From NCBI GenBank assembly GCA_963727525.1, contig CAVSGO010000007.1, forward strand, positions 1,189,393 to 1,253,392: 64,000 nt of DNA. The letters run 5' to 3'. The DNA is from an uncultured bacterium (GTDB lineage Bacteria; Krumholzibacteriota; Krumholzibacteriia; LZORAL124-64-63). Below the pieces are notes generated by a model. It was not told the origin of the DNA and did no database searches. It saw nothing but the letters and a program-made list of their open reading frames with translations. Below are positions 46,216 through 61,968 of the stretch, one piece after another. Position numbers and translations under genes: made by a program. Numbering within the stretch: the first letter of the stretch is position 1; every line of letters begins with the position of its first letter.

Positions 46216-48643
46216 GTCGCCTCCACCCCACCACCAGCAGTACGACGATGCCTAAAAGTCCGATCAGGCTGGCGACGAATCCCGCGCGCAGACCAGGCGT
46301 GTGGTAGGCGAACCGCACCTCGTGTTTTCCCGCCGGCAACGCCACGGCCCGCAACGCGTGGTCGGCCGTCAGCAACGGCTGTGCCGCGCCGTCCACGTGG
46401 ACGATCCAGCCCGGAGCGGCGAGGTCGGCAAGCACGAGCACCGCGGGCGACGGCGCCTCGGTCGCCAGCACGATCTCGTCGGGACCGTCCTTCACGAACG
46501 TCGGGCGCGGCAGTGGTGCCTCGGCGGGCACGGGCGGCGGTTCCGGGACCTGGTCGAGCACGACGGCCGCGCTCGCGTCGTGACGACCGGCGACGATCGC
46601 ATCGAGGAATGGACCGAGCGAATCGTTCGCCGCGATTGTGAAGCGGTCGACCAGCCGGGCCCGCGGCAAGGCGGCGCGATTGTGGTAGAGCCACATGTTC
46701 CCGACAGTCTGCGGCGTGGGTTCGAGGTCGAGCCCGACCTGGCGCAGCACGTCGAACGCCTCGGCCGGCAGCGCGCGCGCGAAGGTGACCGTCGTCGCTC
46801 CGAGCCAGTTCGCGAGGTGGCCGCTGGGCATCTGCCCGAAGAGCCGCTGGCGCAGTTCCTCGGCCACCGCCGGCTTGGCCGGGTAGTAGCCGCCGAGCGA
46901 CCGCACACCCACGGTCATGTAGGCATTGCTCTGGCTGTCGCGCGCCAGCGGGTACACGCGCTCGTGCCCCACCCCGGCCTGAAGCGCGGCGGCCAGAGCC
47001 GGATCGACGAGCGGGGCGCGCTGGCGACGATAGGGATGCTCGAGCCGGGCGGCGGCCAGGAGGCGCCCGCGTCCCTGCGAGTCGGCCACGACCTGCTGCA
47101 GGGCTGTCTGCGGTGCCGTCACCAGCCTCGCCACGGAACCCAGGTCCACGCACAGGAGCAGCGCGAGCACCCACACCAGCGCCCGCGCCCGGAAGACCGC
47201 GTGCCGCGTGGCCAGGAAGATCGCCCCGGCGGCCGCGAGCAGCACCAGGCCGTCGCGCACGAGGAAACTCTTCTGGAGAGCCCAGGCGCCGTCGAGCAGC
47301 ACGTCGACCGCCTGCTTGCCCGTGCCCGCGGCGACGTCCCGCAGATGGCTGCGGAACGCGCCGGCCGTGGCGCCGGACGCGCCGGCGACGAGCGTGAGCG
47401 CGCCGAGCGCCGCGAGCACGATGAGCACGATGCGCCGTTGCCGGTCACGTCCGGGGGCATCCTCGGCCAGCGCCGCCGCCCCCTGGCCCGCCAGGACCGC
47501 TGCCACGAAGGCCAGTAGCACCAGGATCATCGAGGGCACGCGGAACTTGTCGAAATACGGCAGTGCGGCATACATCGCCTGGTACAGGCCCGGACTGCGG
47601 CCTCCCAGGGCTACCAGCAGCGCCAGCACACCGGCGACCGCGCAGCAGAGCACCAGGCTGCGCCGCCGCGTCCACCAGGCCGCGCCGGCCAGCACCAGCC
47701 ATAGCCAGCCGAGGTAATTGGGATAGTCGGTGAAGGGCATCGGTCCCATGTACGTGGCCTTGCCGAAGCCCATGGCGCCGGGCTGCACCAGCGTCGGGAT
47801 CTCCTGCGGTCCGAGGCTCCAGGCCGTGGCGTAGTCGAAGCCCACACCGCCTCCCGCTCCGCTCCCGCCGCGGGTCGAGATGGCCGCGTAGTCGTGCACC
47901 GGAAGCAGCATCACGGCGCCCACCAGGAACGCGAGCGCCAGGGCAACGGCCACCAGTCCGGCGCGCCGCAACCGCGCGCCGATCGGCACGACGTCACCCA
48001 GGGGCCAGGCGACGTGCCACACGACGATGAATCCGAGCAGCAGAAGCGTGTAGTACGTGATCTGCACGTGCCCGCGCAGGAATTGCAGTCCGAGCAGCAA
48101 TGCCAGCCAGCCCACAGAACGCAGGCGCCCGCGCGTGAGCACGTCGAAGGTCAACCCCACCAGCCAGGGCAGGTACATCGCCGCGCCCAGCTTGCTGCCG
48201 TGTCCGTACACGCTCCACGCCACGATGCGCGCGAACATGAGCCAGCCCACGGCGCCCACGACCCGCGCCGCCAGCGGCAGGCGCCAGCGGCCCAGCAGCC
48301 ACACCATGCCCAGACCGCCGAAGACGAGATGGGCAAGCAGCCACGTCAGCGGCGGGAAATGGAGCTGGCGCTGGAGGAACTCGAGGATCAGGCCCGGCGG
48401 ATAGAGCCCTGGTGTGTAGGCTAGCGAACCGAAGGTGGGCATGCCGATGAAGATGAACGGAGTCCACTGGGGATAGCCGCCCGCCGCGTCGCCGGCCAGC
48501 CGGAACGCGTCGGAGCTCTCGGCGTCGGCGCTCTGGAACACGTGGCCGCGGAACATGGCCCCCGGATAGAGCCATGCCAGTATCAGGACCACGGCCAGGG
48601 CGGGCGCCCAGGCGCGCAGTCGGGACAGCGGCGGCATGGTCAC
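46208..48643 (-). CDS. YfhO-family polytopic membrane protein (GT-C fold glycosyltransferase using polyprenyl-P-sugar donors)
   Basis: 811 aa with at least 13 TM helices and a C-terminal extracytoplasmic domain plus a terminal TM, which is the YfhO architecture. GTG at 48643 has an AAGGAGG RBS (5-nt spacer). Confidence 0.7.
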   Translation of the reverse strand: MTMPPLSRLRAWAPALAVVLILAWLYPGAMFRGHVFQSADAESSDAFRLAGDAAGGYPQWTPFIFIGMPTFGSLAYTPGLYPPGLILEFLQRQLHFPPLTWLLAHLVFGGLGMVWLLGRWRLPLAARVVGAVGWLMFARIVAWSVYGHGSKLGAAMYLPWLVGLTFDVLTRGRLRSVGWLALLLGLQFLRGHVQITYYTLLLLGFIVVWHVAWPLGDVVPIGARLRRAGLVAVALALAFLVGAVMLLPVHDYAAISTRGGSGAGGGVGFDYATAWSLGPQEIPTLVQPGAMGFGKATYMGPMPFTDYPNYLGWLWLVLAGAAWWTRRRSLVLCCAVAGVLALLVALGGRSPGLYQAMYAALPYFDKFRVPSMILVLLAFVAAVLAGQGAAALAEDAPGRDRQRRIVLIVLAALGALTLVAGASGATAGAFRSHLRDVAAGTGKQAVDVLLDGAWALQKSFLVRDGLVLLAAAGAIFLATRHAVFRARALVWVLALLLCVDLGSVARLVTAPQTALQQVVADSQGRGRLLAAARLEHPYRRQRAPLVDPALAAALQAGVGHERVYPLARDSQSNAYMTVGVRSLGGYYPAKPAVAEELRQRLFGQMPSGHLANWLGATTVTFARALPAEAFDVLRQVGLDLEPTPQTVGNMWLYHNRAALPRARLVDRFTIAANDSLGPFLDAIVAGRHDASAAVVLDQVPEPPPVPAEAPLPRPTFVKDGPDEIVLATEAPSPAVLVLADLAAPGWIVHVDGAAQPLLTADHALRAVALPAGKHEVRFAYHTPGLRAGFVASLIGLLGIVVLLVVGWRRHE

Positions 48644-48661
48644 ACGGCCCTCCTTCGCGAT

Positions 48662-49591
48662 TCAGGTTAGCATTCCCGGCGCAGGATTGTCCACCGGCGC
48701 CGCCCGCAGCTCGTCGAGGGCACCTTGTACCAGGGCCAGGGCCGTCGCCCAGCGGCCGTGCCACAGATGCCACACGTAGTGGCCGCCGAAGTAGGCGAGC
48801 TGGCCCAGGGCGAGCGCGGGCCAGTCGCGGACCGGCCAGTGGCGGCGCAGCAGCTTGATGTGGCTGCGGCTGCGCAGGTACGCCTTCCGCGGACTGCCGA
48901 CGCCGAGGCTGGCGCTCACACGGTGCAGGATGAGCGCGCGTGGCACGTGCAGGATCTCGCCGCCCCGCTCGCGCATGCGCAGGCTGTAGTCGGCATCCTC
49001 GCCGTAGAAGTAGAAATCGGTGTCGAGCAGACCGAGCCGCTGAAGGTTCTCACGCGCGAGCAGCAAGGCGCACCCCGTGCCGTAGTCGACGAAACGCTGC
49101 TCGAGGGAGAGCTTGCCGGTGAGCTTGCGGATCCCCTCGTGGCTCACCCAGCCGCTCCAGCGGCCCACACGCCCACCGTCGTACCAGGCGCGCGCGGGGT
49201 CGTCGAAGTAGCAGATGCGCGGCGTGGCCGCCCAGGCGCGCGGCTCGGCCGCGAGCGCGGTGGTGAGCCGTTCGAGGCTGCCCTGGGGCACGCTCGTGTC
49301 GTTGTTCAGCAGGAGCACCTGGTCCTGCGGCAGCCCTTCCTCGAGCAGGCGTTGCAGGGCGAGGTTGTTGCCCGCCGCCCACCGCAGGTTGCGGTCCGAC
49401 TCGATGATCTCGACCTCGGGATGGTGCTTGCGCACGAAGGCCAGCGAGCTGTCCGTGGACGCGTTGTCGACGAGAAGCACTCGCAGATCGGGATAGCCCG
49501 CGTCCCGGAGGGAGCGCAGGCAGTCCGGCAGGACCTCGCGGCCGTTCCAGTTCACCACCACGACCACCAGGCTCGGCAGGGTATCAGACAC
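48662..49591 (-). CDS. GT2 family glycosyltransferase
   Basis: LVVVVVNWNGREVLPDCL...LLVDNASTDSS and DxD motifs. Overlaps the upstream GT2 by 8 nt. Confidence 0.8.
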   Translation of the reverse strand: MSDTLPSLVVVVVNWNGREVLPDCLRSLRDAGYPDLRVLLVDNASTDSSLAFVRKHHPEVEIIESDRNLRWAAGNNLALQRLLEEGLPQDQVLLLNNDTSVPQGSLERLTTALAAEPRAWAATPRICYFDDPARAWYDGGRVGRWSGWVSHEGIRKLTGKLSLEQRFVDYGTGCALLLARENLQRLGLLDTDFYFYGEDADYSLRMRERGGEILHVPRALILHRVSASLGVGSPRKAYLRSRSHIKLLRRHWPVRDWPALALGQLAYFGGHYVWHLWHGRWATALALVQGALDELRAAPVDNPAPGMLT

Positions 49592-50507
49592 GATCGCGCA
49601 CCCGGAACGCCTCGGTCGGCCGGCGCTGGCTGACGATCAGTTCCGCGATCAGCCCCAGGCTGATGAACTGGATGGCCATGATGACGAGCACGAGTCCGAG
49701 CACCAGCATCGGGCGCACGCGCAGCGCGTGTCCCACGAGCCAGGTGACGAGGAAGTACAGGCAGATCGCCAACCCCGCCGTCCCCGTGCCCACGCCGAGC
49801 CGGCCGAAGAAATGCAGCGGCGAGGTGCCGCGCGCGTGCAGGAACGACACGGTGAGCAGATCGAGGAAGCCGTGCAGAAAACGGTCGAGGCCATACTTGG
49901 TGACGCCGTACTTCCGCCGGTGGTGGCGCACCGGGATCTCCGTGACACGGAAGCCATCGAGATGCGCGAGCGCCGGCACGTAGCGGTGCATCTCGCCATA
50001 GAGCGGCAGCCGCTGGGTGACTTCGCGGCGGTACGCCTTGAGCCCGCAATTGAAGTCGTGCAGGGCGAGTCCGCACATCCGGCTCGTGGCCCAATTGTAA
50101 ATCTTGGAGGTGTTGTTCTTGACCCACGTGTCCTTGCGATCCTGCTTCCAGCCCGAGACGAGGTCCCAGCCCTCGTCGAGGGTGGCGAGCAAGCGCGGGA
50201 TCTCGACAGGATCGTCCTGCAGGTCGGCGTCCATGGTGACGACGATGCGCCCCTGCGCGGCAGCGAAACCCGCCGCTAGCGCCGCCGCCTTGCCATAGTT
50301 GCGCGCCAGGCGGATGCCGTGCACGTGGGAGTCGGCCGCAGCCTGGGCCTGGATCGCTTCCCAGGTGCTATCGCGCGAGCCGTCGTCAATGATCCACATC
50401 TCCCAGGCGAGGCCGGCGGCCGCCGCCACGTCGCGCACCTGCGCCACCAGTTCGGGGAGCGATTCGGCCTCGTTGAACGCGGGCACCACGATGGCGACAT
50501 CAACCAC
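49584..50507 (-). CDS. GT2 polyprenyl-phosphate glycosyltransferase (ArnC/GtrB/CsbB-like) with two C-terminal TM helices
   Basis: VAIVVPAFNEAESL...IDDGSRDST...TMDADLQDDP and a C-terminal pair of TM helices, as in Und-P-sugar synthases. Confidence 0.8.
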   Translation of the reverse strand: MVDVAIVVPAFNEAESLPELVAQVRDVAAAAGLAWEMWIIDDGSRDSTWEAIQAQAAADSHVHGIRLARNYGKAAALAAGFAAAQGRIVVTMDADLQDDPVEIPRLLATLDEGWDLVSGWKQDRKDTWVKNNTSKIYNWATSRMCGLALHDFNCGLKAYRREVTQRLPLYGEMHRYVPALAHLDGFRVTEIPVRHHRRKYGVTKYGLDRFLHGFLDLLTVSFLHARGTSPLHFFGRLGVGTGTAGLAICLYFLVTWLVGHALRVRPMLVLGLVLVIMAIQFISLGLIAELIVSQRRPTEAFRVRDRV

Positions 50508-51558
50508 CCTGACGCCTCCTGGCCACGGTCCACATGACCTCGCGTGCGATCCCCTCGGCGAACGGCACTTGCGGCGCGTATCCGATGAGCGCCTCGCCGT
50601 GCGAGCGGTCGGCGTAGGTGTGGCGGACGTCGCCCTTGGCCGTCTCGGTGTAGGCGATCTGCGCCTGGGTGTGCGGCGCGGTCTTGCGCAGAAGCGCCGC
50701 GATCAGCTCGAGCGCGTCGGCCAGCACGATGCGTGAGCCGCCGCCCACGTTGAACACCGGCCCGCCCGCCGGCGCCGCCACGCTCAGCAGATTGGCGCGC
50801 ACGGCGTCGGTGACGTAGGTGAAATCGCGCGTCTGCCGGCCATCGCCATACACGCGGAAGGGCCGTCCGTCGAGCGCCGCCTCGCAGAACTTGCGGAAGG
50901 CCATGTCGGGCCGTTGCCGCGGGCCGTACACCGTGAAGTATCGCAGACTCGCCGTCGGAACCTGGAAACCCTCGGCGTACAGCACGCAGAGATGCTCGGC
51001 CGCCAGCTTGCTCACGCCGTAAGGGGAGCGCGGCATGGGCAGCATGTCCTCCGTCACAGGATACTGCGGCTGGTCGCCGTACACGGAACTGGAGCTTGAG
51101 TAGACGAGGCGCGCGAGGTCGCCGCCCACACGCGGATCGCGGCAAGCTTCGAGTAGCCGCTGGGTCGCCAGCACGTTCCAGTCGAGGTAGTGAGTGAACT
51201 CGCGTCCCCAGCTCGCCCTCACGCCCGCCTGCGCGGCCAGATGGAAACAGGCGCGAGCGCCGGCCAGGAGGTCGACCGCATCGAGGTCGTTCAGATCGCG
51301 TTCCAGGAACGTGAACCGCGGATGGGCCTGGGCCGTGCCCAGGTTCTCGCGCTTGAGGGCCGGATCGTAGTAGTCGGTAAGCCGGTCGACGCCCACCACG
51401 TCGCATTCCAGCGCGAGGAGGGCCTCCGTGAGGTGGCTGCCGATGAAGCCCGCGCACCCCGTGACGACCACGCGGGCGCCCGGCGCAAGGATATCGCGCA
51501 CGGCCGCGGGCAAGTCGGCCGTGAGGGCTGACCAGTCATGCTCCCAGGCCGCGCTCAC
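50500..51558 (-). CDS. NAD-dependent epimerase/dehydratase (UDP-sugar 4-epimerase-like)
   Basis: VVVTGCAGFIGSHL Rossmann motif and SSSSVYG...YGVSK (YxxxK) catalytic motifs. GTG at 51558 overlaps the DUF2723 gene stop (GTGA). Confidence 0.8.
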   Translation of the reverse strand: MSAAWEHDWSALTADLPAAVRDILAPGARVVVTGCAGFIGSHLTEALLALECDVVGVDRLTDYYDPALKRENLGTAQAHPRFTFLERDLNDLDAVDLLAGARACFHLAAQAGVRASWGREFTHYLDWNVLATQRLLEACRDPRVGGDLARLVYSSSSSVYGDQPQYPVTEDMLPMPRSPYGVSKLAAEHLCVLYAEGFQVPTASLRYFTVYGPRQRPDMAFRKFCEAALDGRPFRVYGDGRQTRDFTYVTDAVRANLLSVAAPAGGPVFNVGGGSRIVLADALELIAALLRKTAPHTQAQIAYTETAKGDVRHTYADRSHGEALIGYAPQVPFAEGIAREVMWTVARRRQGG

Positions 51559-54500
51559 TGACCGCCTCCCTGGATGGTCTCCTTCATGCGGCTGTTCTCC
51601 TGATCGCGCGCCTTCGCGTCGAGCTTCTGCATGCGGTCGCGCAGCGTGGGATCGGGCTTGCCGGTCGCCGTCTCGTACCGCGTCACGAGGTCGCGGCATT
51701 TGCCGACCTCGCCTGCCGACTCGTACACGCGAAAGAGCAGATCATAGGCGAACGTCCACTGCGGTGCACGGTCGATCTGCTGTTCGAGCCAGGCGGCTGC
51801 CTGGTCGGCGCGGTCAAGGCCGAGCAGACCGCGCACGCCCGCCAGGATGGCCTGCTCCTCGATGGCCGGATCGATGCGGCCGTGCAGCGACTCGAGGAAC
51901 GCGAGCGCCTTGGCGATCTGGCCATGTTCCATCAGCAACGCCGGGTAATAGCCGGTGGCGACGAGCGCGTTGGTCGGATCGAAGCGTAACGCCAGTTCGT
52001 AGCAGGTCAGGGCGCGGTCCGTGAGGTGGTCGTACGCCGTGGTATCGGCCGCGGCGAGATCGCCGTTGCTGGTACGCAGCTCCTCTGAATCCCGCAGGTA
52101 ATCGAAGCCGGCGCGTGCGATCGAGACCGGGTAGTTGCCCAGGAGGTTCAACGTATTGGCGTCGCGATAGACGTCGGTGCGGTCGTGACCGACCAGCTCC
52201 AGGACCGGCGCGAGGTCGAGCCGCGTCGGCAGGCCGTACTTCTCCAGGTTCAGCGCCGGCGGCGTATCGCTCTGCCAGCCGACAGCCTCGGCGAAGCGCT
52301 GGTGCCGGGGTGCGTCGTCACCCGTGAGCAGTGCGCTCAGCTCGTACGCGCCCAGGACGTTGGCGAGCAGGCGCTCGCCATCGGTGGTGGGCAGGTTGTC
52401 CGGCGACTTGGTCTCGAGGAGCCGGTACGCCAGCCCTTCCATCTGCAGGAAGGGGAAGTAGGTGGCCATGTTCTCGCGCGGGATGGTCACGGCGAAGAAC
52501 ACGGGCCGTGGGTGCGCCGACCTGCGATTCGTGTCGACCACGTCCTGGACCACGTAGTCGCGCACGTAGACATAGGTGATGTTGCCGGTGTCCGCGTCGC
52601 GCAAGGCACGTGGCCGCAGCGCCTCGACCTGCGCCTTGGTGAAGCTGAGCGGGATACCGGGATTCCTGCCGCGGAGCTGCTCCACGTACCACGGCAGGTT
52701 GACCAGCGAGAGGTTCACCACGGTCACGTCGCGCCGGAAGTGCTCCACCTCCTGCAGGTACCAGATCGGGAAGGTGTCGTTGTCGCCGTTGGTGAAGACG
52801 ATCGCGTTCTCGTCGAGGCCGGCCAGGATGTTGTACGCGTACTGGTAGGGGATGCGGTTCTCGTGCCGGTCGTGCTCGAACCACTTCACATGGTGCGGCT
52901 GGATGAGCGGCAGCGCGGCAATGAGCACGAGCAAGGCGGCCGCCACCTTCGCCAGCACTCCAGTGGGCACGGCACGCACGGCCGCCACGGGCGCCAGGCG
53001 CCGCGGCATGCCCCGTTGCTCGCCATAGGCGAGCAACGCGCCGCCGAGCACCGCCCCGTAGCACACCATGACGAAGAGCCGATCTTGCCCCGCGGCGAAG
53101 AGCGAGAGCATGAGCCCTCCGACCACCATCAACGCGATGAACATGAGTCCGAGTCCGAGCCGCGCGCCCCAGGAGCGCGCATTCCAGGCCGCCGGCGGCG
53201 GGGCGGCCGCGCGACCTCGCGCCGGTTCGCCAGGCCGGTCGATGAAGCGGCAGAGAAAAAGTCCCAGGAACGGGCCGCCGAAGAGGATGAATGGCAGCAC
53301 GCCCGGACGCGCGCCGGCGGGCGTGAAGACGAGCAGCACCATCGCCACGATGAACGCCGCACCCCAGCGCAACAGGAATCCCCGCGGCAGGAACGGACGC
53401 GCCGGCGGCGGCGGGTTGGCCTCGCGCTCGAGCTGGCCCAGGCTCGGTCCCTCGGGACCGGCGGTGAAACGCAGCAGGGCGGCCACCCCCAGTCCGATGA
53501 ATACCGCGTAATACATGAAGGCCGCGAAGTAGAAATAGTCGCGTGCGCGGACCTCGTGGTCCGTGAAGTTGAGGTACAGCGTCAACAGATCGGCGTTCAC
53601 GAGATACAGCGCCACCAGCATCCACAGCACGGGGCGCGCACGACGCACGCCGTTGACCAGCCCCAGGAGCCCCAGCGCGATGGGCCCGATGAGGGTGCCC
53701 AGGAACGCCGCCATCCCGTGCTTCTGCGACAGGAAGACGAACTGCTGCATGAGGAAGTCGTAGTAGTAGCGGAACTGGAAGCTCAGCGGCGCCTGGCGCT
53801 GGAGCGGATTGAGCGCCGGGTACTGCTCGCGGCGCAGCACCGAGAGCAGGGTCTTGAAGTTGTCCGGCGTCGTCTGGTTGATCGCCGGCTCGGGATGCGC
53901 TCCGGCGCGGATGATCATCATCAGGTGCACCGACAGGCCCGCCACGAAGAGCAGCAGGGCGAGCAGCGCCAGCGGCCGCCGAGCCATGGCCCGCGCGACA
54001 CACGCCAGCGTGTAGACGATGATCAGCGCCAGCAGGATGCCACCATTCGTGACGAAGGTGGTCGAGGCCAGGAACAGCGCCAGCCCCACCGACACGAGCA
54101 TGAGGTCGAGGACCGGAAGCTGACGATCAGTGGTCATCCAGATCAGCAAGAAGATGCCCGGGTAGGCCAGCAACGACCCCAGGTGGAAACCGACGCCGAG
54201 GCCGAAGAGGTAGATGAGCAGCAGCAGCAGCCAGTTGCTACGCTCCTCCGTTCGGGTCTCGTACCAGCGCAGTCCGAGCCAGGTGAGCAGCGCCATCATG
54301 AAGCCGGCGAGACCATAGACCTCGGCCTCGATGGCATTGTTCCAGAACGTTTCCGAGAACGTCAGGAAGAGCGCCCCTACCACGCCGCCGGCGATGGCGA
54401 TCCAGCCGCTGTCGGGATCGACCCGCCGCGCCAAGCGCACGATCACGAGGTAGCTCAGCATCACGGCGAGCGCGCTGAAGAACGCACTCATCCAGTTCAC

Positions 54501-54755
54501 CGCGGCGGCGGTACGCGTGGACGCTGTCGTGGTGTCGGCTTGCCCCAGGACGCAATCAAATACGCGGCCCACAAGCACGTAGAGCGGCGTGCCCGGCTGG
54601 TGCGGGATGCCGACGATATGGCTAGTCGTGATGTACTCGGCGCAATCCCAGAAGCTGATGGTCGGCGCCATGGTGGCGGTGTAGACACCCAGGGCAAGCA
54701 GGAAGACGCCGCCCGCCACGAGGTTCCCCGGGCGCAGGTACCACTTGCGGTCCAA
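51555..54755 (-). CDS. DUF2723 / TMEM260-like GT-C membrane glycosyltransferase with C-terminal TPR repeats (1066 aa)
   Basis: The N-terminal hallmark SFWDCAEYITTSHIVGIPHQPGTPLYVL matches the DUF2723 WDsGEf...GiPHpPGyPL motif. At least 12 TM helices are followed by a large C-terminal soluble region with TPR-like repeats (…YYPALLMEHGQIAKALAFLESL…). TTG start at 54755. Confidence 0.75.
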   Translation of the reverse strand: MDRKWYLRPGNLVAGGVFLLALGVYTATMAPTISFWDCAEYITTSHIVGIPHQPGTPLYVLVGRVFDCVLGQADTTTASTRTAAAVNWMSAFFSALAVMLSYLVIVRLARRVDPDSGWIAIAGGVVGALFLTFSETFWNNAIEAEVYGLAGFMMALLTWLGLRWYETRTEERSNWLLLLLIYLFGLGVGFHLGSLLAYPGIFLLIWMTTDRQLPVLDLMLVSVGLALFLASTTFVTNGGILLALIIVYTLACVARAMARRPLALLALLLFVAGLSVHLMMIIRAGAHPEPAINQTTPDNFKTLLSVLRREQYPALNPLQRQAPLSFQFRYYYDFLMQQFVFLSQKHGMAAFLGTLIGPIALGLLGLVNGVRRARPVLWMLVALYLVNADLLTLYLNFTDHEVRARDYFYFAAFMYYAVFIGLGVAALLRFTAGPEGPSLGQLEREANPPPPARPFLPRGFLLRWGAAFIVAMVLLVFTPAGARPGVLPFILFGGPFLGLFLCRFIDRPGEPARGRAAAPPPAAWNARSWGARLGLGLMFIALMVVGGLMLSLFAAGQDRLFVMVCYGAVLGGALLAYGEQRGMPRRLAPVAAVRAVPTGVLAKVAAALLVLIAALPLIQPHHVKWFEHDRHENRIPYQYAYNILAGLDENAIVFTNGDNDTFPIWYLQEVEHFRRDVTVVNLSLVNLPWYVEQLRGRNPGIPLSFTKAQVEALRPRALRDADTGNITYVYVRDYVVQDVVDTNRRSAHPRPVFFAVTIPRENMATYFPFLQMEGLAYRLLETKSPDNLPTTDGERLLANVLGAYELSALLTGDDAPRHQRFAEAVGWQSDTPPALNLEKYGLPTRLDLAPVLELVGHDRTDVYRDANTLNLLGNYPVSIARAGFDYLRDSEELRTSNGDLAAADTTAYDHLTDRALTCYELALRFDPTNALVATGYYPALLMEHGQIAKALAFLESLHGRIDPAIEEQAILAGVRGLLGLDRADQAAAWLEQQIDRAPQWTFAYDLLFRVYESAGEVGKCRDLVTRYETATGKPDPTLRDRMQKLDAKARDQENSRMKETIQGGGQ

Positions 54756-54835
54756 ACTGTCCCCTTACGTAAGCGGAATGAATACGCGCACTTCAGGCCG
54801 CAGAAGGTAACACACGGTCAAATGGGCGACAACCC

Positions 54836-55804
54836 TCAACCCCTGACGGTGGCGTCGGTTCCCGCCGGGCGGCGGCTCCAGAACACGACCCCTCCCACGA
54901 GGCTGAACGCCACCATCACCAGGAAGGCCATCATCTCCATGGCCACCACGGCGCGCGGTTCGAGCCCCGACCAGGGCAACAGGTAGGCCGACACGGTCTC
55001 GCGCAGCCCGATACCATTGATCGTCACCGGCAGTGTGAGGCTGATGGCCAGCATCGGCACCAGAACGAAGAGCTGCAGCACCTGAGCGCCCGCGAGCGAC
55101 AGATGGAGGCCCCAGGCCACGGCCAGGTGCGTGACGATGCGCAGGGCCTGCACGACCAGGCTGTAGGCAAAGAGCCGCGCGAGGAGGCGCGGGCGCCGGC
55201 GGAAGGCCTGGAAATCGGCCACCACCATCGCCAGTTGCTCGGCCAGCGTGGGCATCCGCAACCGCCGGAGCCAGCCGGGCAACCGCGTACCCAGACGCCG
55301 CGACAGCAGGGCGGCGACCGCGCCACCCAGGACCAGCAGCACCCCGCCGAGCAGCCACGTCACCGGCGGCAACGGGATCCCGGCCCCCACGGCGACCGCG
55401 ACGGCGACCACCGCCACCATCGTCAGGGCGCTCAGGCCGAGCAGCCGATCCAGGAGCGTGGCGGCGAAGACCTTCGCCGCATCCTGCTCCCGGCGACCGA
55501 GATCGACGACCTTGTAGATGTCGCCGCCCACGTTGGCAGGCAGGAAGTTGTTGAAGAACAGCCCCACCAGGTACAGCCGCACACACACGCGCATGCGGGT
55601 GCCGAGGCCGGCGGCATGCAGCAACCAGCCCCATTGCAGCGCGCCCCCGATCGCGGAGAGCCCGTAGACCGCGAGAGCCACCGCCAGCCACCCCCACATC
55701 GGCTGGCGCAGCGCGGCCTGGATCTCGGCCAGCGGCTGGCGCGAGAGCAACCAGGCCAGCAGGGCGAGACTGACGACGATCTTCGCCAGCTGCTTCGCGG
55801 TCAC
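54836..55804 (-). CDS. LPG-synthase-TM-like / flippase-like membrane protein (UPF0104)
   Basis: 8-TM protein with GLFFNNFLPANVGGD motif typical of the lysyl-PG-synthase TM/flippase-like family. GTG at 55804 overlaps the GT4 stop (GTGA). Confidence 0.6.
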   Translation of the reverse strand: MTAKQLAKIVVSLALLAWLLSRQPLAEIQAALRQPMWGWLAVALAVYGLSAIGGALQWGWLLHAAGLGTRMRVCVRLYLVGLFFNNFLPANVGGDIYKVVDLGRREQDAAKVFAATLLDRLLGLSALTMVAVVAVAVAVGAGIPLPPVTWLLGGVLLVLGGAVAALLSRRLGTRLPGWLRRLRMPTLAEQLAMVVADFQAFRRRPRLLARLFAYSLVVQALRIVTHLAVAWGLHLSLAGAQVLQLFVLVPMLAISLTLPVTINGIGLRETVSAYLLPWSGLEPRAVVAMEMMAFLVMVAFSLVGGVVFWSRRPAGTDATVRG

Positions 55805-56922
55805 CGTTGCGCTCCGATCGCCACCCGCGCGAAGAGGTCGAGCGATTCACGCACGCACGTCGGCCACGCGAAGCTCGCAGCCCATACCCGCGCGGCGTCG
55901 CTGTAGCAGGCCCAGAGGTCGCGATCGTGCAGCAGGCTCAGCGCAGCGTGAGCCATGGCCTCGGCATCGCCGTAGGGCACGAGGATCCCGGTCTGCCCGT
56001 CGCGCACGGAGTCGCGCAGGCCGGGCCGGTCGCTCGCCACCACGGGCAAGCCGCACTGGTTGGCCTCCACCACCGTCAATCCCCACCCCTCCTTGGGGCT
56101 GGGGTTCAGGCACACGTGAGCCCGGTGCAGGGTGCGCACCAGCTCGTCCCAGGGCAGGTGGCCGGTGAAGGTGACGGCATCGGTCAGGCCGACCCGCGCC
56201 ACGAGCCGGCGCAGCCGCGGCTCGTCCGGTCCGCGCCCCATGACGATCAGGTTCGCTTCCGGCAGCTCTTCTCGGATGTGCGCGAAGGCACGGATCGCCA
56301 CGTCGTTGCTCTTGTAGCGTCGCAGCCGCGACCAGCACACCACCAGCGGCGTCTCGGTGCGCGGCGGCGGGTCGTCGAGGGCAAAGCGCTCGTGCGCGAG
56401 ACCGCAGTGGATCACGGCGATGCGCTCGCGCGCGACGCCGCGCCGCGCGAGATCGTCGGCAGTGGACTGACTGATGACCTCGAATGTCGCGTGCCGGTAG
56501 ACCAGCGGAATCGGCCACTCGCCGGCCCACACGTAGGTGGCAACCAGGGGGTTGGTCTCGCGGTACACCGTCCGCCCGAAGAGGTGCGGCACGATGACCA
56601 GCACCGGTACCTTGCCCGCATAGAGCGGCGTGTAGAACGGGATCTTGTTGATGTCCTCGACGACGAGATCCCAGCTCTCCTCGCGCAGGCGCCGACGCAC
56701 TACGGCCGGCAGCAGGATATTCGCGAAGCGCCAGTCGCCGTGGCGCCGCACCCGGACGCCGTCGAGCATATCGGTGGCCGGCGCGCCGGCATAGGCCGCG
56801 CAAATAAGTTCCACCTCGTGACCGTGGGCTGCCGCACCGCTGAGCAGGTGGTGCAGATGCTGCTCCGCGCCACCGCCGAGAGGGTCGCCGATGTCGCGCC
56901 AGTTCACCGCGAGGATCCTCAC
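55801..56922 (-). CDS. GT4 family glycosyltransferase (Glycos_transf_1)
   Basis: VRILAVNW...GGAEQHLHHLL N-domain and C-terminal EGWGLTVVEANQCGLPVVASD (EX7E-type). GTG at 56922 overlaps the methyltransferase stop (GTGA). Confidence 0.8.
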   Translation of the reverse strand: MRILAVNWRDIGDPLGGGAEQHLHHLLSGAAAHGHEVELICAAYAGAPATDMLDGVRVRRHGDWRFANILLPAVVRRRLREESWDLVVEDINKIPFYTPLYAGKVPVLVIVPHLFGRTVYRETNPLVATYVWAGEWPIPLVYRHATFEVISQSTADDLARRGVARERIAVIHCGLAHERFALDDPPPRTETPLVVCWSRLRRYKSNDVAIRAFAHIREELPEANLIVMGRGPDEPRLRRLVARVGLTDAVTFTGHLPWDELVRTLHRAHVCLNPSPKEGWGLTVVEANQCGLPVVASDRPGLRDSVRDGQTGILVPYGDAEAMAHAALSLLHDRDLWACYSDAARVWAASFAWPTCVRESLDLFARVAIGAQR

Positions 56923-57680
56923 GGCTTGCGCCCCACGACGCCGATGGTGGGGGTGGTATACAGCGCCAGGCGACGTCGGCCGAACCAGTCGCGCCAGCCC
57001 TGGCCCAGGGTACCGAAGGGGCGCATGGGGAGCCGGGCGCCCGTGCGCGTGAGCACGACCTTTCGCAACGCGCGGTACCAGAGCCCCGGGACCATCCAGT
57101 CGCCGTAGCTTCGCTGCGGCACCAGGCCGGCCTGGCGCACCAGAGACTCCAGCTCGTCGATCGTGAACTGCGTCTCCCAGCCCGCAAACCACTTGCCCAG
57201 GGCGATGAGGACCTGCTTGCCCACGGTGTAGTAGTGGAACGTCTGCGGCACGTCCACCACGAGCACGCCGCCATCGCGCAGGACCCGCACGTTCTCGCGC
57301 AACAGCGGCAAGGGGTCGCGAAAGTGCTCGAGCAGGCCCTGATGGAAGACCACGTCGAAGGTGCCGTCGGGAAAGGGCATGGCCAGGCCGTCGCCACACA
57401 CCGGCGCCACGGGTGCCGACGCCGTCCGGGCCGCCTGCTGGGTCAAAAGTAGCGAGCCAGGCACGTAATCGAGGGTGATGATCTCGGCGCCGGCGGCTGC
57501 CAGGGTGACGGCGTCGCGCCCCGTACCCGCGCCGACCTCGAGCACGCGCTTGCCGCGCAGGTCGCCCAGCGCGGTGATCTCGCGCACGAGGCGACCGTCG
57601 TTGCCGTAGACGTCGTCCAGGCCGTGCGCATCGGCTTGCTCCCAGAACTGCTGCCAGTGCCGCGGCGTCGATTCCCTCAC
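56919..57680 (-). CDS. Class I SAM-dependent methyltransferase
   Basis: Motif I VLEVGAGTGRD and post-I/II motifs (DVVFHQGLLEH...LRDGGVLVV). GTG at 57680 overlaps the nusB stop (GTGA). Confidence 0.75.
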   Translation of the reverse strand: MRESTPRHWQQFWEQADAHGLDDVYGNDGRLVREITALGDLRGKRVLEVGAGTGRDAVTLAAAGAEIITLDYVPGSLLLTQQAARTASAPVAPVCGDGLAMPFPDGTFDVVFHQGLLEHFRDPLPLLRENVRVLRDGGVLVVDVPQTFHYYTVGKQVLIALGKWFAGWETQFTIDELESLVRQAGLVPQRSYGDWMVPGLWYRALRKVVLTRTGARLPMRPFGTLGQGWRDWFGRRRLALYTTPTIGVVGRKP

Positions 57681-58090
57681 GGCTTCAGCCCCGCCGCCGC
57701 CCGGTCGAGCACGCCGTTCACGAACCCCACCGCGTGCTCGTCGCAGAACAAGCGTGCAAGCTCGCAAGCCTCGTTGATGGCCACCTTGTACGGCACCTCG
57801 GGGCTGTGATGCAGCTCCGTGATGGCCAGCGTGAGGATGAGCCGTTCAAGCAGCCCGACCCGTTCGAGGTCCCAGTTCGCGAGCAACGGCGCGATCTCGC
57901 GCTCGTGGGCCGCGCCGTGATTGATGACCTTGCGCACGAGCTCGCGGGCGAAGTCGCTGGTCTCGTCGTTCGATTCGCGGCGGTCCAGCTGATCATCGAG
58001 GCACTGGAGCAGCCCCCCGCCGCTCACGCGGGAGGCGTACATGGCCTGCAGAACGATCGCGCGCCCCTTGCTGCGTTTGCCCACGGTCAC
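57677..58090 (-). CDS. nusB: Transcription antitermination factor NusB
   Basis: RSKGRAIVLQAMYA...W...R....ERLIL..A..EL all-helical NusB signature. GTG at 58090 overlaps the ribH stop (GTGA). Confidence 0.85.
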   Translation of the reverse strand: MTVGKRSKGRAIVLQAMYASRVSGGGLLQCLDDQLDRRESNDETSDFARELVRKVINHGAAHEREIAPLLANWDLERVGLLERLILTLAITELHHSPEVPYKVAINEACELARLFCDEHAVGFVNGVLDRAAAGLKP

Positions 58091-58560
58091 CCCTTGTCGA
58101 TGGTGGCGTAGAGATCGATCATCTCGAGGGCGGTCATGGCCGCATCGAACCCCTTGTTGCCCGCCTTGGTTCCGGCCCGCTCGATCGCCTGGTCGAGAGT
58201 CTCGGCGGTGACGACACCGTAGACGACCGGGATGCTCGCTTCCAACCCCACCTGCGCGACGCCCTTCGTCAGCTCGTTGCTGATGTAGTGCCAATGGGGC
58301 GTGTCGCCCTGGATGACGCAACCCACGCAGATGACCGCCGCATACCGGCCGCTGCCGGCGAAGCGTTTGGCCACCGGCGGGATCTCGAAACCTCCAGGCA
58401 CCCACGCCAGGTCCACCTGGTCGTCGCTCACACCGTGGCGGCGCAGGCAGTCGCGCGCGCCGTCCACCAGCTCGCTGGTGAAGAAATCGTTGAAGCGGCT
58501 GGCGACGATGGCGATCTTCTGCCCACGCGCATCGAAGCGTCCCTCGTACGTCTTGCCCAT
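58087..58560 (-). CDS. ribH: 6,7-dimethyl-8-ribityllumazine synthase
   Basis: KIAIVASRFN...GGFEIP...AVI.LG.VI.G.T.H lumazine synthase motifs. Confidence 0.95.
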   Translation of the reverse strand: MGKTYEGRFDARGQKIAIVASRFNDFFTSELVDGARDCLRRHGVSDDQVDLAWVPGGFEIPPVAKRFAGSGRYAAVICVGCVIQGDTPHWHYISNELTKGVAQVGLEASIPVVYGVVTAETLDQAIERAGTKAGNKGFDAAMTALEMIDLYATIDKG

Positions 58561-58576: not shown

Positions 58577-59779
58577 TTACAGATGATCCAGCAGGTGGCC
58601 GAGGCGCGCCTTCTTGGTCTTCAGGTACTCGAGGTTGCGCAGATTCGGTCGGATCTCCAGCGGTACCCGATCGACGATGTGCAGACCGTAGCTGTCGAGC
58701 CCGACGATCTTGCGCGGATTGTTCGTCATCAGCCGCATCTCGCGCACGCCCAGATCGCGCAGCATCTGGGCGCCGAGTCCATACTCGCGCAGATCGGCCG
58801 GAAAGCCCAGGCGGTGGTTGGCCTCGACGGTGTCCAGGCCCGCGTCCTGCAGATCATAGGCCTTGAGCTTGTTCAGCAGGCCGATGCCGCGCCCTTCCTG
58901 CCGCATGTACAGCAGCACGCCGCGCCCCTCGGCCTCGATGGCCGTGAGCGCCGCCTCGAGCTGCTCGCCACAGTCGCAGCGGAGACTGTGGAAGAGGTCA
59001 CCGGTGAGGCACTCGCTGTGCACCCGCACCAGGGTGGGCTCCTCGGTCACGATGTCGCCCTTGACCAGCGCCAGGTGCACGAGGCTGTCGACGCTGGTGG
59101 TGTAGGCGATCATGCGGAAGTTGCCGTGCCGCGCGGGCATGGCCACGTCGGCCGCGCGTGTGACGAGCTGCTCATGGCCACGCCGCCAGCGGATGAGGTC
59201 GGCGATGGAGATGAGCCTAAGGTCGTGCTCCCGTGCAAGCTCCAGCAGGCGCGGCAGACGCGCCATGCTGCCGTCGTCGTCCATGATCTCGCAGAGGATG
59301 CCCGCCGGGGTGAGCCCGGCCGCCCTGCAGAGATCGACCACGGCCTCCGTATGCCCGGCCCGCCGCAGCACGCCGCCGTTCACCGCCTCCAGCGGAAAGA
59401 CATGCCCGGGTCGCGCCAGATCCTGCGACCGCGTCTGCGGGTCGATGAACACTTGCACCGTACGCGCACGGTCGTGCGCGCTGATGCCCGTCGTGGTGCC
59501 GGTGGCGGCGTCCACGCTCACGGTGAACTGCGTACCAAGACTGGCCGTATTGCGCGCCACCATGGGCTGCAGCTCCAGCTCACGCATACGTTCGCCGGTG
59601 GCGGCCAGGCACACGAGACCGCGCCCGTGCTTGGCGACGAAGTTGATCGCCTGGGGCGTCACCTTGTCGGCGGCCATGACGAAATCGCCCTCGTTCTCGC
59701 GGTCCTCATCGTCGACCACGATGATGAGCTCGCCGCGCTTCAACGCTTCGAGAGCGGAATCGATGGTGTCGAGGGTCAT
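58577..59779 (-). CDS. ribBA: Bifunctional DHBP synthase / GTP cyclohydrolase II
   Basis: RibB half ([15 protein letters not shown]) and RibA half (ECLTGD...CDCG, RDxxxK). ATG at 59779 overlaps the ribE stop (ATGA). Confidence 0.95.
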
Positions 59780-60441
59780 GATCTCTCCCCTGAGTCGCGG
59801 CTCCAGCCGCGCGCGAGGATGAAGCCGAGGTCGGGCACCTGGGCCGCGACCTCCGCCCGCCGCCCCGTGCGGGCGGCCTTGACAAGCACATCCATCTCCA
59901 GATTCACGCGCCGCCCCCGCCGGGCCTGCGCGAACGTCGTCCAGCGAAGCGTGTGCGGGATGAGGTTCAAGGTGAAGCGGTCGACATGCGGACCGGCATC
60001 CACCGTGAGGCTGACACCGTCCACTGCGACCGACCCCTTGGGCATGAGCCACTGGACGAGATCCGCGCCGCATGCCACCGTCATCAAGAAGCTGGCGCCT
60101 TGCGGCCTGATGGCCGCGATGGTGCCCGTGCCGTCCACGTGACCCTGCACGAGGTGCCCGTCCAGCGCCTGACCGGCCTGCAGCGCGGGTTCGAGATGGA
60201 GACGATCGCCGGCGCGCCAGCCTGCCAGCGTGGTGACCCGCAGCGTCTCGGCCGCGGCTTCCACGGTGACGGCGTCGCGCGCATGATCCGTGACGGTGAG
60301 GCAGATGCCATTGACGGCAAGCGAGTCGCCGGCCTTCAGCGCCGGCGCCGTCCGGGGCGCGCCGATTGTCAGACGCGCGAGCTGCCGCGTCGTGTGCATG
60401 GCGCGCAGGGTGCCGATCTCGCGGATGAGGCCCGTGAACAC
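59776..60441 (-). CDS. ribE: Riboflavin synthase alpha subunit
   Basis: [12 protein letters not shown]... N-terminus and duplicated lumazine-binding halves ([13 protein letters not shown] / [12 protein letters not shown]). GTG at 60441 has a GGGAGGGGAG RBS. Confidence 0.85.
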
Positions 60442-60442
60442 G

Positions 60443-61528
60443 TCACTCCCCTCCCGCAAGCTGGCGACGCGTGGCCGCGAAGTCGGTGTGGTCCCAGACG
60501 GCGCACAGATCGTTGCCCACCTGGTCGGTGCGTGTGAGAGAGAACGCCTCGACCGGGCCGCTCGTGCTCGACGGCCACGACGGGCCGTCGCCGAGCACGA
60601 CCGGCGCCGTGTATTGCACCCAGCGATCCACGAGCCCGGCCGCAAGGAAGCTCGCCGCCAGCCGCGGCCCGCCCTCCAGCAGCACCGTGTGCACGTGCCG
60701 CGACGACGACGCCTCGAGCAGCGCGGTCGGATGGATCCCGTTGCGCCCCGCCGGGCAGCGCAGCACGTCGAAACCCGCAGGCGGCGTGCCGTTGGCCGTG
60801 TGCGCACAGAACACGAGACCGCTCTCGCGCCGTAGCCCACTCTCGAGTTCGAGCCGCGTGTCGACGTAGCCGACCAGCGGCAGCGCCTGCGGACAGCACG
60901 CGTCGTCGACCACGAGCCGCGTGTCGAGGCGCGGACGGTCGGCCTCCGCCGTACCGCGCCCCACGAGCACGAGGTCGAGCCATCGGCGCCTCTCGTGCAC
61001 GCGCCGGCGCGCCGACTCGCTGGTGAGGTAGACCGGCCCGGCCGCGAGCTTGGCCGCCGGCGCGAAGCGCCCGTCGAGACTCTGCGCCGTCTTCAGTTCC
61101 ACGTAGGGCCGGGCGAAGCCCTCGGTGACGACGAATGGCCACACCAGTTCGAGGCAGGCATCGGCTTCGACGCCGAGCATGACCTCCACGCCCTCGCCCA
61201 CCAGCCGCGCCAGTCCCCCGCCCTTGACGGTGGGATTGGGGTCCCGCACTCCGCATACGACGCGCGTGATGCCCGCCTGCAGGATCGCCTCGGTGCACGG
61301 CGGCGTGCGCCCGTGGTGATTGCAGGGCTCGAGGGTGCAGAACAAGGTGGCGCCGCGCGCGCGCGCGCCGGCCTCGCCAAGGGCCACGCGCTCGGCGTGA
61401 GGTCGGCCGGGCCCGTGGTGGGCTCCACGCCCGACGACCTCGCCGTCGCTTACGACGAGTGTGCCCACCGGCGGGTTCGGCCACGTCCGTCGCGGCAACC
61501 GCCCCGCCAGTTGCAAAGCCTCGTTCAT
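60443..61528 (-). CDS. ribD: Bifunctional riboflavin biosynthesis deaminase/reductase RibD
   Basis: CMP/dCMP deaminase zinc motif (HAERVAL...TLEPCNHHGRTPPC) followed by an RibD_C reductase domain. ATG at 61528 (MNEALQLAG). Confidence 0.9.
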   Translation of the reverse strand: MNEALQLAGRLPRRTWPNPPVGTLVVSDGEVVGRGAHHGPGRPHAERVALGEAGARARGATLFCTLEPCNHHGRTPPCTEAILQAGITRVVCGVRDPNPTVKGGGLARLVGEGVEVMLGVEADACLELVWPFVVTEGFARPYVELKTAQSLDGRFAPAAKLAAGPVYLTSESARRRVHERRRWLDLVLVGRGTAEADRPRLDTRLVVDDACCPQALPLVGYVDTRLELESGLRRESGLVFCAHTANGTPPAGFDVLRCPAGRNGIHPTALLEASSSRHVHTVLLEGGPRLAASFLAAGLVDRWVQYTAPVVLGDGPSWPSSTSGPVEAFSLTRTDQVGNDLCAVWDHTDFAATRRQLAGGE

Positions 61529-61599
61529 ATACTGCGCATCGCGCAAGACGGTAGACCCTTCGTCCGTGCCGGCACGAAGGGAGAGGCGGGGGTCTGGCC

Positions 61600-61714
61600 C
61601 CAACTTCTCCCATCCGGACTGTGACCGTCGGCTCCGGAATCTCACCGGATCGTGCCCTTGCGGGCTCGCGGGCTTTCACCGCCGGTGGGGACTTCCACCC
61701 CGCCCTGAAGTTGG
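61600..61714 (-). promoter_or_regulatory. FMN riboswitch (RFN element) in the ribD leader
   Basis: Minus strand CCAACTTCAGGGCGGGGTGGAAGTCCCCACCGGCGGTGAAAGCCCGCGAGCCCGCAAGGGCACGATCCGGTGAGATTCCGGAGCCGACGGTCACAGTCCGGATGGGAGAAGTTGG. It carries the conserved GGG(C)GGGGTGaAAgTCCC...ACCGGCGGT...AGCCCGCGAGC...GGATGGGAGAAG blocks and an 8-bp P1 (CCAACTTC/GAAGTTGG). A downstream 8-bp hairpin (61556-61581) is a possible expression platform. Confidence 0.85.
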
Positions 61715-61727
61715 ATCTGGCTGCCCC

Positions 61728-61756
61728 AAAATAGCTGGCAGTGTTCGAGCGGTCAA
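61728..61756 (-). promoter_or_regulatory. Putative sigma70-type promoter driving the FMN riboswitch and rib operon
   Basis: Minus strand TTGACC (61756-61751), 17-nt spacer, TATTTT (61733-61728), placing the TSS about 7-10 nt before the riboswitch P1. Confidence 0.4.
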
Positions 61757-61968
61757 GCCGACTGCTCGTGCCCGAATCGGTGACAGCGACTGCACACCGC
61801 GATCGGATTGCTCGGGTCGCCCACCACGGCGCTGGCGGATTCCCCGCGGATCAATGCCTACGACCCGGTTGCGCACCACGTCCGTGCCGCCCGTATCTCA
61901 CCGTCGGCAACGCCGGCGCGACGCGGACGACGAGGTATATGGCCATCGTCCCCCGCAACGCAACGCCC

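Follow-up and report, generated by a model that had tools for sequence, protein, structure and literature searches.

A predicted FMN riboswitch with the ribD Shine-Dalgarno sequence in its hairpin heads a rib-nusB-glycan gene array in a Krumholzibacteria-like bacterium

In Escherichia coli, the FMN riboswitch of ribB reportedly combines translational control with Rho-dependent termination (Hollands et al. 2012). It controls the monocistronic ribB, and the ribE(ribH)-nusB unit lies outside riboswitch control. The ribD (ribDG) riboswitch of Bacillus subtilis, a member of the RF00050 family, heads the ribD-ribE-ribBA-ribH operon and is an OFF switch composed of P1, an anti-terminator and a terminator (the mechanism is given as summarised in PMC6298564, together with general knowledge). 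For ribM of Corynebacterium glutamicum, regulation by the FMN riboswitch occurs at both the mRNA and the protein level, via Rho and RNase E/G (PMC4288175). Linkage between rib genes and nusB is widespread, and a survey of predicted operons led to the proposal that operons shared with nusB or nrdR avoid riboswitch control (PMC5312566).

We analyzed the leader of the rib genes in the window, that is, the whole stretch of 64,000 nucleotides. Like the B. subtilis ribD riboswitch, it belongs to RF00050, heads rib genes and shows a similar arrangement of P1, anti-terminator and terminator-like hairpin. It differs from that system in that the hairpin has no U-tract and holds the Shine-Dalgarno (SD) sequence, and in that ribH is joined downstream to nusB and glycan genes. 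As at E. coli ribB, the ribosome-binding site would be hidden by FMN, a strong intrinsic terminator is missing, and Rho polarity is a possible secondary effect; unlike ribB, the riboswitch of the window heads an operon containing nusB. A high-GC host and the lack of a canonical terminator are shared with C. glutamicum ribM (PMC4288175), whereas ribM is a transporter gene and a clear anti-SD/SD hairpin is found in the window. The likely co-transcription of ribH-nusB with unrelated genes has a parallel in nrdR-ribD-ribE-ribA-ribH-nusB of Vibrio cholerae, but this main riboflavin operon has no FMN riboswitch (PMC5312566).

A reading made from the sequence alone (the sequence-only reading) had called a regulatory link from flavin to nusB and glycosylation genes unexpected. 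The putative link is unusual, but nusB had already been catalogued in 5 of 651 predicted FMN-riboswitch units (PMC5312566). The window belongs to this minority, which is rare but not new.

Promoter, aptamer and start codon of ribD

The features of the leader and of ribD are as follows.

61751..61756, minus strand: -35 hexamer TTGACC (motif scan and relatives)
61728..61733, minus strand: -10 hexamer TATTTT (motif scan and relatives)
61598..61716, minus strand: FMN riboswitch aptamer, or RFN element (RF00050)
61556..61561, minus strand: ribD SD sequence GAAGGG, in the 3' arm of the hairpin (anti-SD pairing)
60443..61546, minus strand: ribD, with a TTG start at 61546 (MRDAQYMNEAL; Pfam)

Rfam cmscan aligned positions 61716..61598 with RF00050 at 112.8 bits (E 1.8e-25), far above the gathering score of 66.2. 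The alignment covered model positions 1-138, which is the full model without truncation, and the aptamer was the sole gathering-level Rfam match in the 64-kb window. P1 consists of 8 bp between CCAACUUC (61714..61707) and GAAGUUGG (61607..61600) and closes the six-stem junction. The G-rich junction blocks AGGGC, CCGGCGGU, CCGACGG and GGAUGGGAGAAG agree with the RF00050 consensus in the cmscan alignment, and the junction G's that contact the ribityl-phosphate are conserved. ribD, ribE, ribBA and ribH follow directly downstream. The covariance search thus bore out the RFN element with an 8-bp P1 and conserved blocks that had been read from the sequence, and by these matches the element is classed as a canonical FMN (RFN) riboswitch. 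Rare altered-specificity variants of FMN riboswitches carry G-to-A changes in the ribityl-phosphate pocket and stand in transporter or efflux gene contexts (PMC6298564). Since the junction blocks of the window aptamer agree with the consensus, it is not such a variant. The leader would be expected to respond to FMN.

Useful relatives were obtained by protein database and contig look-ups; a scan of metagenome contigs yielded few close ones. The identity of RibD to that of the nearest genomes, which are Candidatus Krumholzibacteria MAGs, was 63% and 52%, and judged from these matches the host of the riboswitch is Krumholzibacteria-like. An FMN aptamer was found upstream of ribD in all 12 relatives for which the sequence there was retrieved, and the aptamer of the window scored as high as theirs. 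Eight of the 12 share its promoter layout and a CCCUUCG/CG(A/G)AGGG hairpin.

L035, L036, L037, L043: same layout, RibD identity 68-73%
L039, L040, L045, L046: same layout, RibD identity 58-60%

Furthermore, an independently assembled sequence (L042, Logan ERR11594398) was identical to the leader of the window where it covered it; the covered part begins within the aptamer and includes the start of ribD.

The promoter scans considered sigma-70-like motifs only. TTGACC-N17-TATTTT (61756..61728) was the only such match within 60500-62500, against a shuffle mean of 0.2. In all eight relatives of the same layout, a -35 TTGAC(C/T), a 17-nt spacer and a TAnnTT -10 were kept, the -10 at the homologous position being TACCTT, TAGGTT or TAGATT. 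The proposal that the riboswitch has its own -35/-10 promoter directly upstream is supported by this conservation of position. Transcription would start near 61721, 6-8 nt ahead of P1.

GAAGGG closes the 3' arm of the hairpin as its final six bases, lies 9 nt before the TTG (61546..61544) and pairs with CCCUUC. The deposited RibD (P0001, 367 aa), recorded from a 2.37-Mb contig, agrees with the TTG start. An in-frame start codon (TTG, GTG or ATG) was found 7-9 nt after GAAGGG or GGAGGG in 9/9 genomes. GGAGGG occurs in L046, where the pairing of the stem is preserved by a U-G wobble. Since GAAGGG lies in the 3' arm of the hairpin and the start geometry is as described, the hairpin contains the ribosome-binding site of ribD.

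We also considered the ATG at 61528 as the start of ribD. It was rejected because it has no SD sequence (anti-SD pairing +0.3 kcal/mol, versus -5.1 kcal/mol for the TTG) and because the start codon adjacent to the hairpin is conserved in position in all nine genomes. Gene callers for L035-L037 picked a downstream ATG, and annotation alone does not settle the start codon. The weak SD, with its -5.1 kcal/mol, and the TTG start codon are caveats on the initiation of ribD.

The gene array and a probable internal promoter

The genes downstream of ribD, and one promoter-like motif among them, are as follows.

59776..60441, minus strand: ribE (riboflavin synthase), 1-nt gap after ribD (Pfam)
58577..59779, minus strand: ribBA, ATGA overlap with ribE (Pfam)
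58087..58560, minus strand: ribH (lumazine synthase), 16-nt gap after ribBA (Pfam)
57677..58084, minus strand: nusB, GTG start 2 nt past the ribH stop (Pfam)
57680..56919, minus strand: SAM methyltransferase, GTGA overlap with the preceding gene (Pfam)
56922..55801, minus strand: GT4 glycosyltransferase, GTGA overlap with the preceding gene (Pfam)
55804..54836, minus strand: LPG_synthase_TM protein, GTGA overlap with the preceding gene (Pfam)
54804..54832, minus strand: internal promoter-like motif, TTGTCG-N17-TACCTT; TGTGT precedes the -10 (five-genome alignment)
43526..54755, minus strand: seven distal glycan genes, from the TMEM260-like gene to the GT2-sugar transferase gene (Pfam, ORF translation)

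The start of nusB was placed by homology at the GTG at 58084. The distal genes encode, in order, a TMEM260-like/DUF2723 protein (Pfam TMEM260-like), an epimerase, two GT2 proteins, a large membrane protein, a GT2 protein and a GT2-sugar transferase; those past the TMEM260-like gene were identified by ORF translation. From ribD onward, the junctions are 1, -4, 16, 2, -4, -4, -4, 80, -4, -8, -8, 18, -8 and -4 nt. Most genes of the array carry clear SD sequences of the GGGAGG, AGGAGG and AAGGGG types, and initiation with an SD is general in this genome. The same strand and the short or overlapping junctions expected of a single operon extend from ribD to the last glycan gene. However, a single operon would have no internal promoter, and a conserved motif lies before the TMEM260-like gene.

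Eight genes from ribD to the LPG_synthase_TM gene are separated by only -4 to +16 nt, and no conserved internal promoter was found among them. The order ribD-ribE-ribBA-ribH-nusB-methyltransferase-GT4-LPG_synthase_TM-TMEM260-epimerase is kept in L035, L036 and the P0004 contig. L039 and L040 have a gap of 126-132 nt between ribH and nusB, which holds TTGCGG or TTGCGT-N17-CATAAT. At the same junction, L041 has two inserted genes and a 131-nt gap with TTGCTT-N17-TACCTT. Thus, in these three more distant genomes, nusB and the methyltransferase, GT4 and LPG_synthase_TM genes appear to form a module with its own promoter. The promoter-bearing gap of ~130 nt is absent in the window, L035 and L036. 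Among these three, no positionally conserved promoter-like motif was found up to 1.4 kb upstream of nusB, also when the -10 was relaxed. Since both the gap and a conserved nusB promoter are missing, co-transcription of the nusB-to-LPG_synthase_TM module with the rib genes is likely in the window.

One candidate promoter of nusB, TTGGAA-18-TACGGT inside ribH (58245), was rejected, as L035 and L036 both lack it and chance alone would give ~1.2 relaxed matches across the array as a whole.

We compared five genomes at the 80-nt gap that precedes the TMEM260-like gene. TTGTCG was invariant in 5/5 and was followed at a fixed spacing by TGTGyTAmCkT, whereas the surrounding spacer varied. Along the 18.4-kb array, the coding strand matched TTGnnn-N16-18-TAnnnT three times, at the rib promoter, at the site before the TMEM260-like gene and at the non-conserved site in ribH. 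L035, L036, L039 and L040 had exactly two relaxed matches each, both homologous to the rib and TMEM260 sites of the window. From this conserved motif, the seven distal genes probably have their own promoter and would then probably be independent of the riboswitch leader. The transcript from the rib promoter would probably comprise ribD-ribE-ribBA-ribH-nusB-methyltransferase-GT4-LPG_synthase_TM, with boundaries placed from gene spacing and promoter motifs. Over nusB and the glycosylation genes, any flavin control is probably weak, and it ends before the internal promoter.

The sequence-only reading had described a rib-nusB-glycan operon headed by the leader, with glycosylation genes translationally coupled behind nusB and potentially modulated by FMN. 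The tight packing was confirmed where ribH and nusB lie 2 nt apart and where nusB and the methyltransferase, GT4 and LPG_synthase_TM genes overlap by GTGA. The distal seven genes probably fall outside this arrangement because of their own promoter motif: an internal promoter is what that reading itself had named as evidence against it, and the motif before the TMEM260-like gene is present in five genomes.

The hairpin, its competing helix and its tail

Three elements lie between the aptamer and the ribD start.

61579..61611, minus strand: anti-sequestor/anti-terminator helix (local folds)
61556..61581, minus strand: sequestor hairpin CCCUUCGU-GCCGGCACGG-ACGAAGGG (folding and relatives)
61547..61555, minus strand: spacer UCUACCGUC in place of the U-tract of the relatives (relatives compared; L042 confirms the sequence)

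The hairpin (61581..61556) folds as 8+3 bp with -15.5 kcal/mol and has the GC-rich stem of an intrinsic terminator. The stem is kept in the eight relatives, and the version in the window is longer than theirs. By this comparison, the hairpin is orthologous to the predicted terminator/sequestor of the relatives, and the palindrome pointed out from the sequence is a real hairpin with a conserved stem.

An alternative helix is formed by GGGAGAAGUUGGGG (61611..61598), which comprises J6/1 and the 3' strand of P1, and CCCCCGCCUCUCCC (61592..61579), with a CCAGA loop. Written out, GGGAGA.AG.UUGGGG (61611..61598) pairs with CCCC.CGCC.UCUCCC (61592..61579). The folding energy of this helix was -20.5 kcal/mol when the isolated segment, extending through CCCUUC, was folded, against -15.5 kcal/mol for the hairpin. 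It excludes P1 and the three closing pairs of the hairpin. We then folded the stretch that begins with GGAUGGGAGAAG and ends with the hairpin, its first 16 nt being either free or blocked, the latter as a mimic of the FMN-bound state. With the 3' segment of the aptamer free, the three C-G pairs that close the hairpin were lost, and the SD had its GGG unpaired. With the first 16 nt blocked, the full hairpin formed. In these local folds, the structure of the expression platform is thus mutually exclusive with P1, and an exchange between antiterminator and hairpin took place. The modelled layout of P1, anti-terminator and terminator is the classical one.

The same exchange was predicted in L035, L036, L039 and L040, and in the latter two the alternative helix reaches further into the arm of the hairpin. 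In L037, no exchange was observed: GAUCCC replaces UCUCCC, and the hairpin was fully formed in both local folds.

The overlap between anti-sequestor and hairpin is just 3-6 nt. Whole-leader folds by MFE and partition function were dropped, because long-range pairings dominate (z-score -0.44) and the two states were not separated. In these equilibrium folds the SD was largely paired in either state (P(unpaired) 0.00 vs 0.11), and the local fold frees its GGG only. Since equilibrium folding separates the states poorly, the switch would have to rely on co-transcriptional kinetics. Kinetic switching is usual for riboswitches.

The sequence after the stem was compared among the nine genomes.

L035, L036: tail TTTTTTTC, start GTG
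L043: tail TTTTTTC, start GTG
L037: tail ATTTTTTC, start GTG
L039, L045: tail CTTTTTC, start ATG
L040, L046: tail TGTTTTC, start ATG
Window: tail TCTACCGTC, start TTG

In 8/8 relatives with the same hairpin, 4-7 U's directly follow the stem and are followed by the start codon. L035, L036, L037 and L043 share the B. subtilis-like design of a hairpin with six to seven U's. The tail of the window, UCUACCGU, has 3 U's among 8 nt and no run, and the window was the sole genome of the nine without a U-tract. The T-tail score was 1.50 for the window and 2.33-4.85 for the relatives; of the d'Aubenton-Carafa discriminant, computed with modern energy parameters, this score and the raw sequences were used, not the d values. 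A terminator scan of the window found none. Since the scan was limited to loops of 3-8 nt and also misses the U7 terminators of L035 and L036, this negative is weak alone, and the direct comparison of tails was used instead.

Because U4-U7 and then the start codon follow the hairpin in all eight relatives, the hairpin there is predicted to sequester the SD and, at the same time, to be a canonical intrinsic terminator, and the U-tract doubles as the spacer between SD and start codon. The window has no U-tract, and control here is thus most likely translational. Its lineage has lost the U-tract, and on the simplest reading the control of ribD shifted from a dual to a mainly translational one. 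The palindrome had been offered as a terminator or a sequestering hairpin. The second option is favoured by the ribD SD inside it, and the first is disfavoured by the T-score and the missing U-tract. For the same reasons, the premise of transcriptional attenuation is the weaker option in the window, although it holds for the relatives.

We propose, with a probability of roughly 0.6, that the leader of the window is an FMN OFF switch that hides the ribD SD and acts in a translational mode, with limited effects downstream. The sigma-70-type promoter TTGACC-17-TATTTT would transcribe the leader. When FMN is bound, P1 would close and keep GGGAGAAGUUGGGG inside the aptamer; the hairpin 61581..61556 would be complete, and GAAGGG would be buried 9 nt before the TTG at 61546. 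When FMN is absent, GGGAGAAGUUGGGG would pair with CCCCCGCCUCUCCC (61592..61579), the hairpin would be without the three C-G pairs that close it, and the GGG of the SD would be free. Control in the window would be exerted at the initiation of ribD translation, and the downstream genes would be affected only via translational coupling or via secondary polarity and mRNA decay. If this translational reading is true, FMN should cause termination at the U7 of L035 and little or none in the leader of the window, and UUUUUUUC put back into the window leader is expected to bring termination back.

Against this reading, a hairpin of this strength could still give pausing, or factor-assisted or Rho-dependent termination.

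Effects of the leader beyond ribD

When the SD is sequestered and ribD is untranslated, Rho and/or RNases might lower the whole mRNA from ribD to the LPG_synthase_TM gene, and nusB and the proximal glycan genes would fall at high FMN. The control of ribM mRNA by Rho and RNase E/G via an FMN riboswitch is a high-GC precedent for this (PMC4288175). In the leader itself, the C-rich GGCCAGACCCCCGCCUCUCCC is largely unpaired in the FMN-bound mimic, and 14 C but 6 G are counted in the 27 nt of 61600..61574. However, a search by C/G composition from the leader into ribD gave no convincing rut-like tract: an extended C-rich, G-poor tract was not found, the C/G ratio over 78 nt was at most 1.23 in the leader, and it peaked at 1.55 only ~190 nt into ribD. 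Moreover, the SD sequences of the downstream genes could shield the mRNA. We consider such polarity unlikely as the main effect of the leader.

Alternatively, the hairpin may terminate transcription in the window too, so that FMN attenuates transcription of the whole array, nusB and every glycosylation gene included. This would fit its orthology to clear terminators in eight relatives, its at least equal stability (-15.5 kcal/mol), the packing of the genes by overlapping stops and starts, and the lack of a conserved nusB promoter. L035 and L036 combine U7 terminators with nusB fused to ribH, and attenuation is plausible there down to the LPG_synthase_TM gene. In the window, however, the tail UCUACCGUC has no T run and a T-score of 1.50, and the terminator scan was negative; mycobacterial RNA polymerase, although from a high-GC lineage, is reported to need a U-tract for intrinsic termination (PMC3993855). 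Furthermore, the promoter motif before the TMEM260-like gene, present in 5/5 genomes, makes it unlikely that the distal seven genes depend on the leader. Attenuation of the whole array thus appears quite improbable.

That loss of the U-tract left a decaying, non-regulatory riboswitch and a constitutive operon with nusB free of flavin control would suit the singular position of the window among nine genomes and the survey's argument that FMN riboswitches are avoided where nusB is in a rib operon (PMC5312566), but it is highly implausible, since the aptamer scores as high as those of the relatives (112.8 bits) and nothing is broken in the longer hairpin (8+3 bp), in the complementarity of the anti-sequestor or in the SD/start geometry, a pattern that fits continued selection.

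The translational reading may be extended to the subclade of the window, L035, L036 and the P0004 contig, which has no ancestral promoter gap before nusB. There, nusB and the methyltransferase, GT4 and LPG_synthase_TM-like genes would have come under the FMN-controlled rib promoter, and the loss of the U-tract in the window would be a secondary adaptation by which FMN acts only on the translation of ribD, with nusB relieved. This scenario is speculative, and we think it doubtful. If true, flavin status would co-regulate an antitermination factor and part of the envelope or protein glycosylation, and the window would be a natural case in which a riboswitch gave up transcriptional for translational control and so uncoupled passenger genes.

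The element itself is routine; it was found by an Rfam scan and represents textbook riboflavin control. Its value is comparative. Across nine related genomes, the same hairpin serves as terminator and sequestor, and one lineage keeps the sequestor without the U-tract. In the same genome set, nusB and the glycan genes either have their own promoter or are fused behind ribH. These genomes form a natural series for asking how the expression platforms of riboswitches pass from the transcriptional to the translational mode or back, and whether the avoidance of FMN riboswitches in nusB-containing rib operons is a real constraint. In L035 and L036, nusB is fused to ribH and yet the leaders carry strong U7 terminators; thus, the avoidance idea is not obviously obeyed in this clade.

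Leader architecture in the window and its relatives

In all eight relatives that share the window's promoter layout and hairpin, the loop of the anti-terminator helix is enlarged by an additional stem-loop of roughly 55-70 nt, which lies between GGGGCC and AGACCCC (in L035 at 8877-8945, and at the corresponding positions elsewhere). The loop of this helix in the window is only 5 nt, CCAGA (window 61593-61597). The window thereby shows the platform in its minimal form.

At the ribD start, a small hairpin, UGCGC-GAU-GCGCA (window 61533-61545), overlaps the TTG start codon by its final two bases and extends over the first codons of the gene; this hairpin was not present in the relatives. Since it is combined in the window with a weak SD and with TTG as the start codon, low basal translation of ribD is suggested.

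The dual layout was also observed, with a different sequence, in L018, whose RibD is more distantly related (42% identity). At L018:497-700, CCCTGG..CCAGGG is followed by TTTTTCT and then ATG. Thus, the hairpin, the U-run and the adjacent start codon recur beyond the immediate clade.

Two aptamers in L035, and the upstream neighbourhood

Two FMN aptamers, with scores of 104.7 and 109.1 bits, were detected in the relative L035 (L035:7683-8876). In copy 1, the aptamer and inserted stem are preserved along with the promoter region (-35 TTAACC), but the terminator/sequestor is missing; 3′ of this copy lies a toxin-antitoxin-like pair of DUF6364 and PIN_3 genes. Copy 2 heads ribD. This arrangement looks as though a toxin-antitoxin module had inserted into the leader, about 230 nt being duplicated.

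The smc-ftsY neighbourhood 5′ of the riboswitch is located as follows:
window 61969-63854
L039:1461-6430
L040:1585-6314

This region is common to the window and the more distant relatives L039 and L040, whereas the closer relatives L035, L036 and L037 instead possess DUF4342, pirin or peptidase genes upstream. Therefore, the gene region 5′ of the riboswitch has been rearranged within the clade.

The nusB-led glycan module

The nusB-methyltransferase-GT4-LPG_synthase_TM module and the gap 5′ of the TMEM260-like gene are located as follows:
window 54836-58084, module (relatives L035, L036, L039, L040, L041 and L044)
window 54756-54835, gap
L035:15789-15877, gap
L039:14040-14142, gap

The order nusB, SAM methyltransferase and GT4 is kept, with the genes adjacent, in these six relatives, and the methyltransferase also comes after nusB on the P0004 contig. 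Five of these relatives continue with LPG_synthase_TM, and four with the TMEM260-like gene. The module has its own promoter in L039, L040 and L041. By analogy, a transcription factor gene, here nusB, at the head of a glycan cluster recalls the polysaccharide operons led by NusG paralogs in Bacteroides (PMC11685472).

In the gap before the TMEM260-like gene, a promoter-like motif, TTGTCG-N17-TAnCnT with TGTG 5′ of the -10, is strongly conserved. In the leader that follows, the GGGG core of the SD is invariant (AAGGGG in 4/5 genomes), and the leaders of L039 and L040 additionally contain a short hairpin, CCTGAAG..CTTCAGG.
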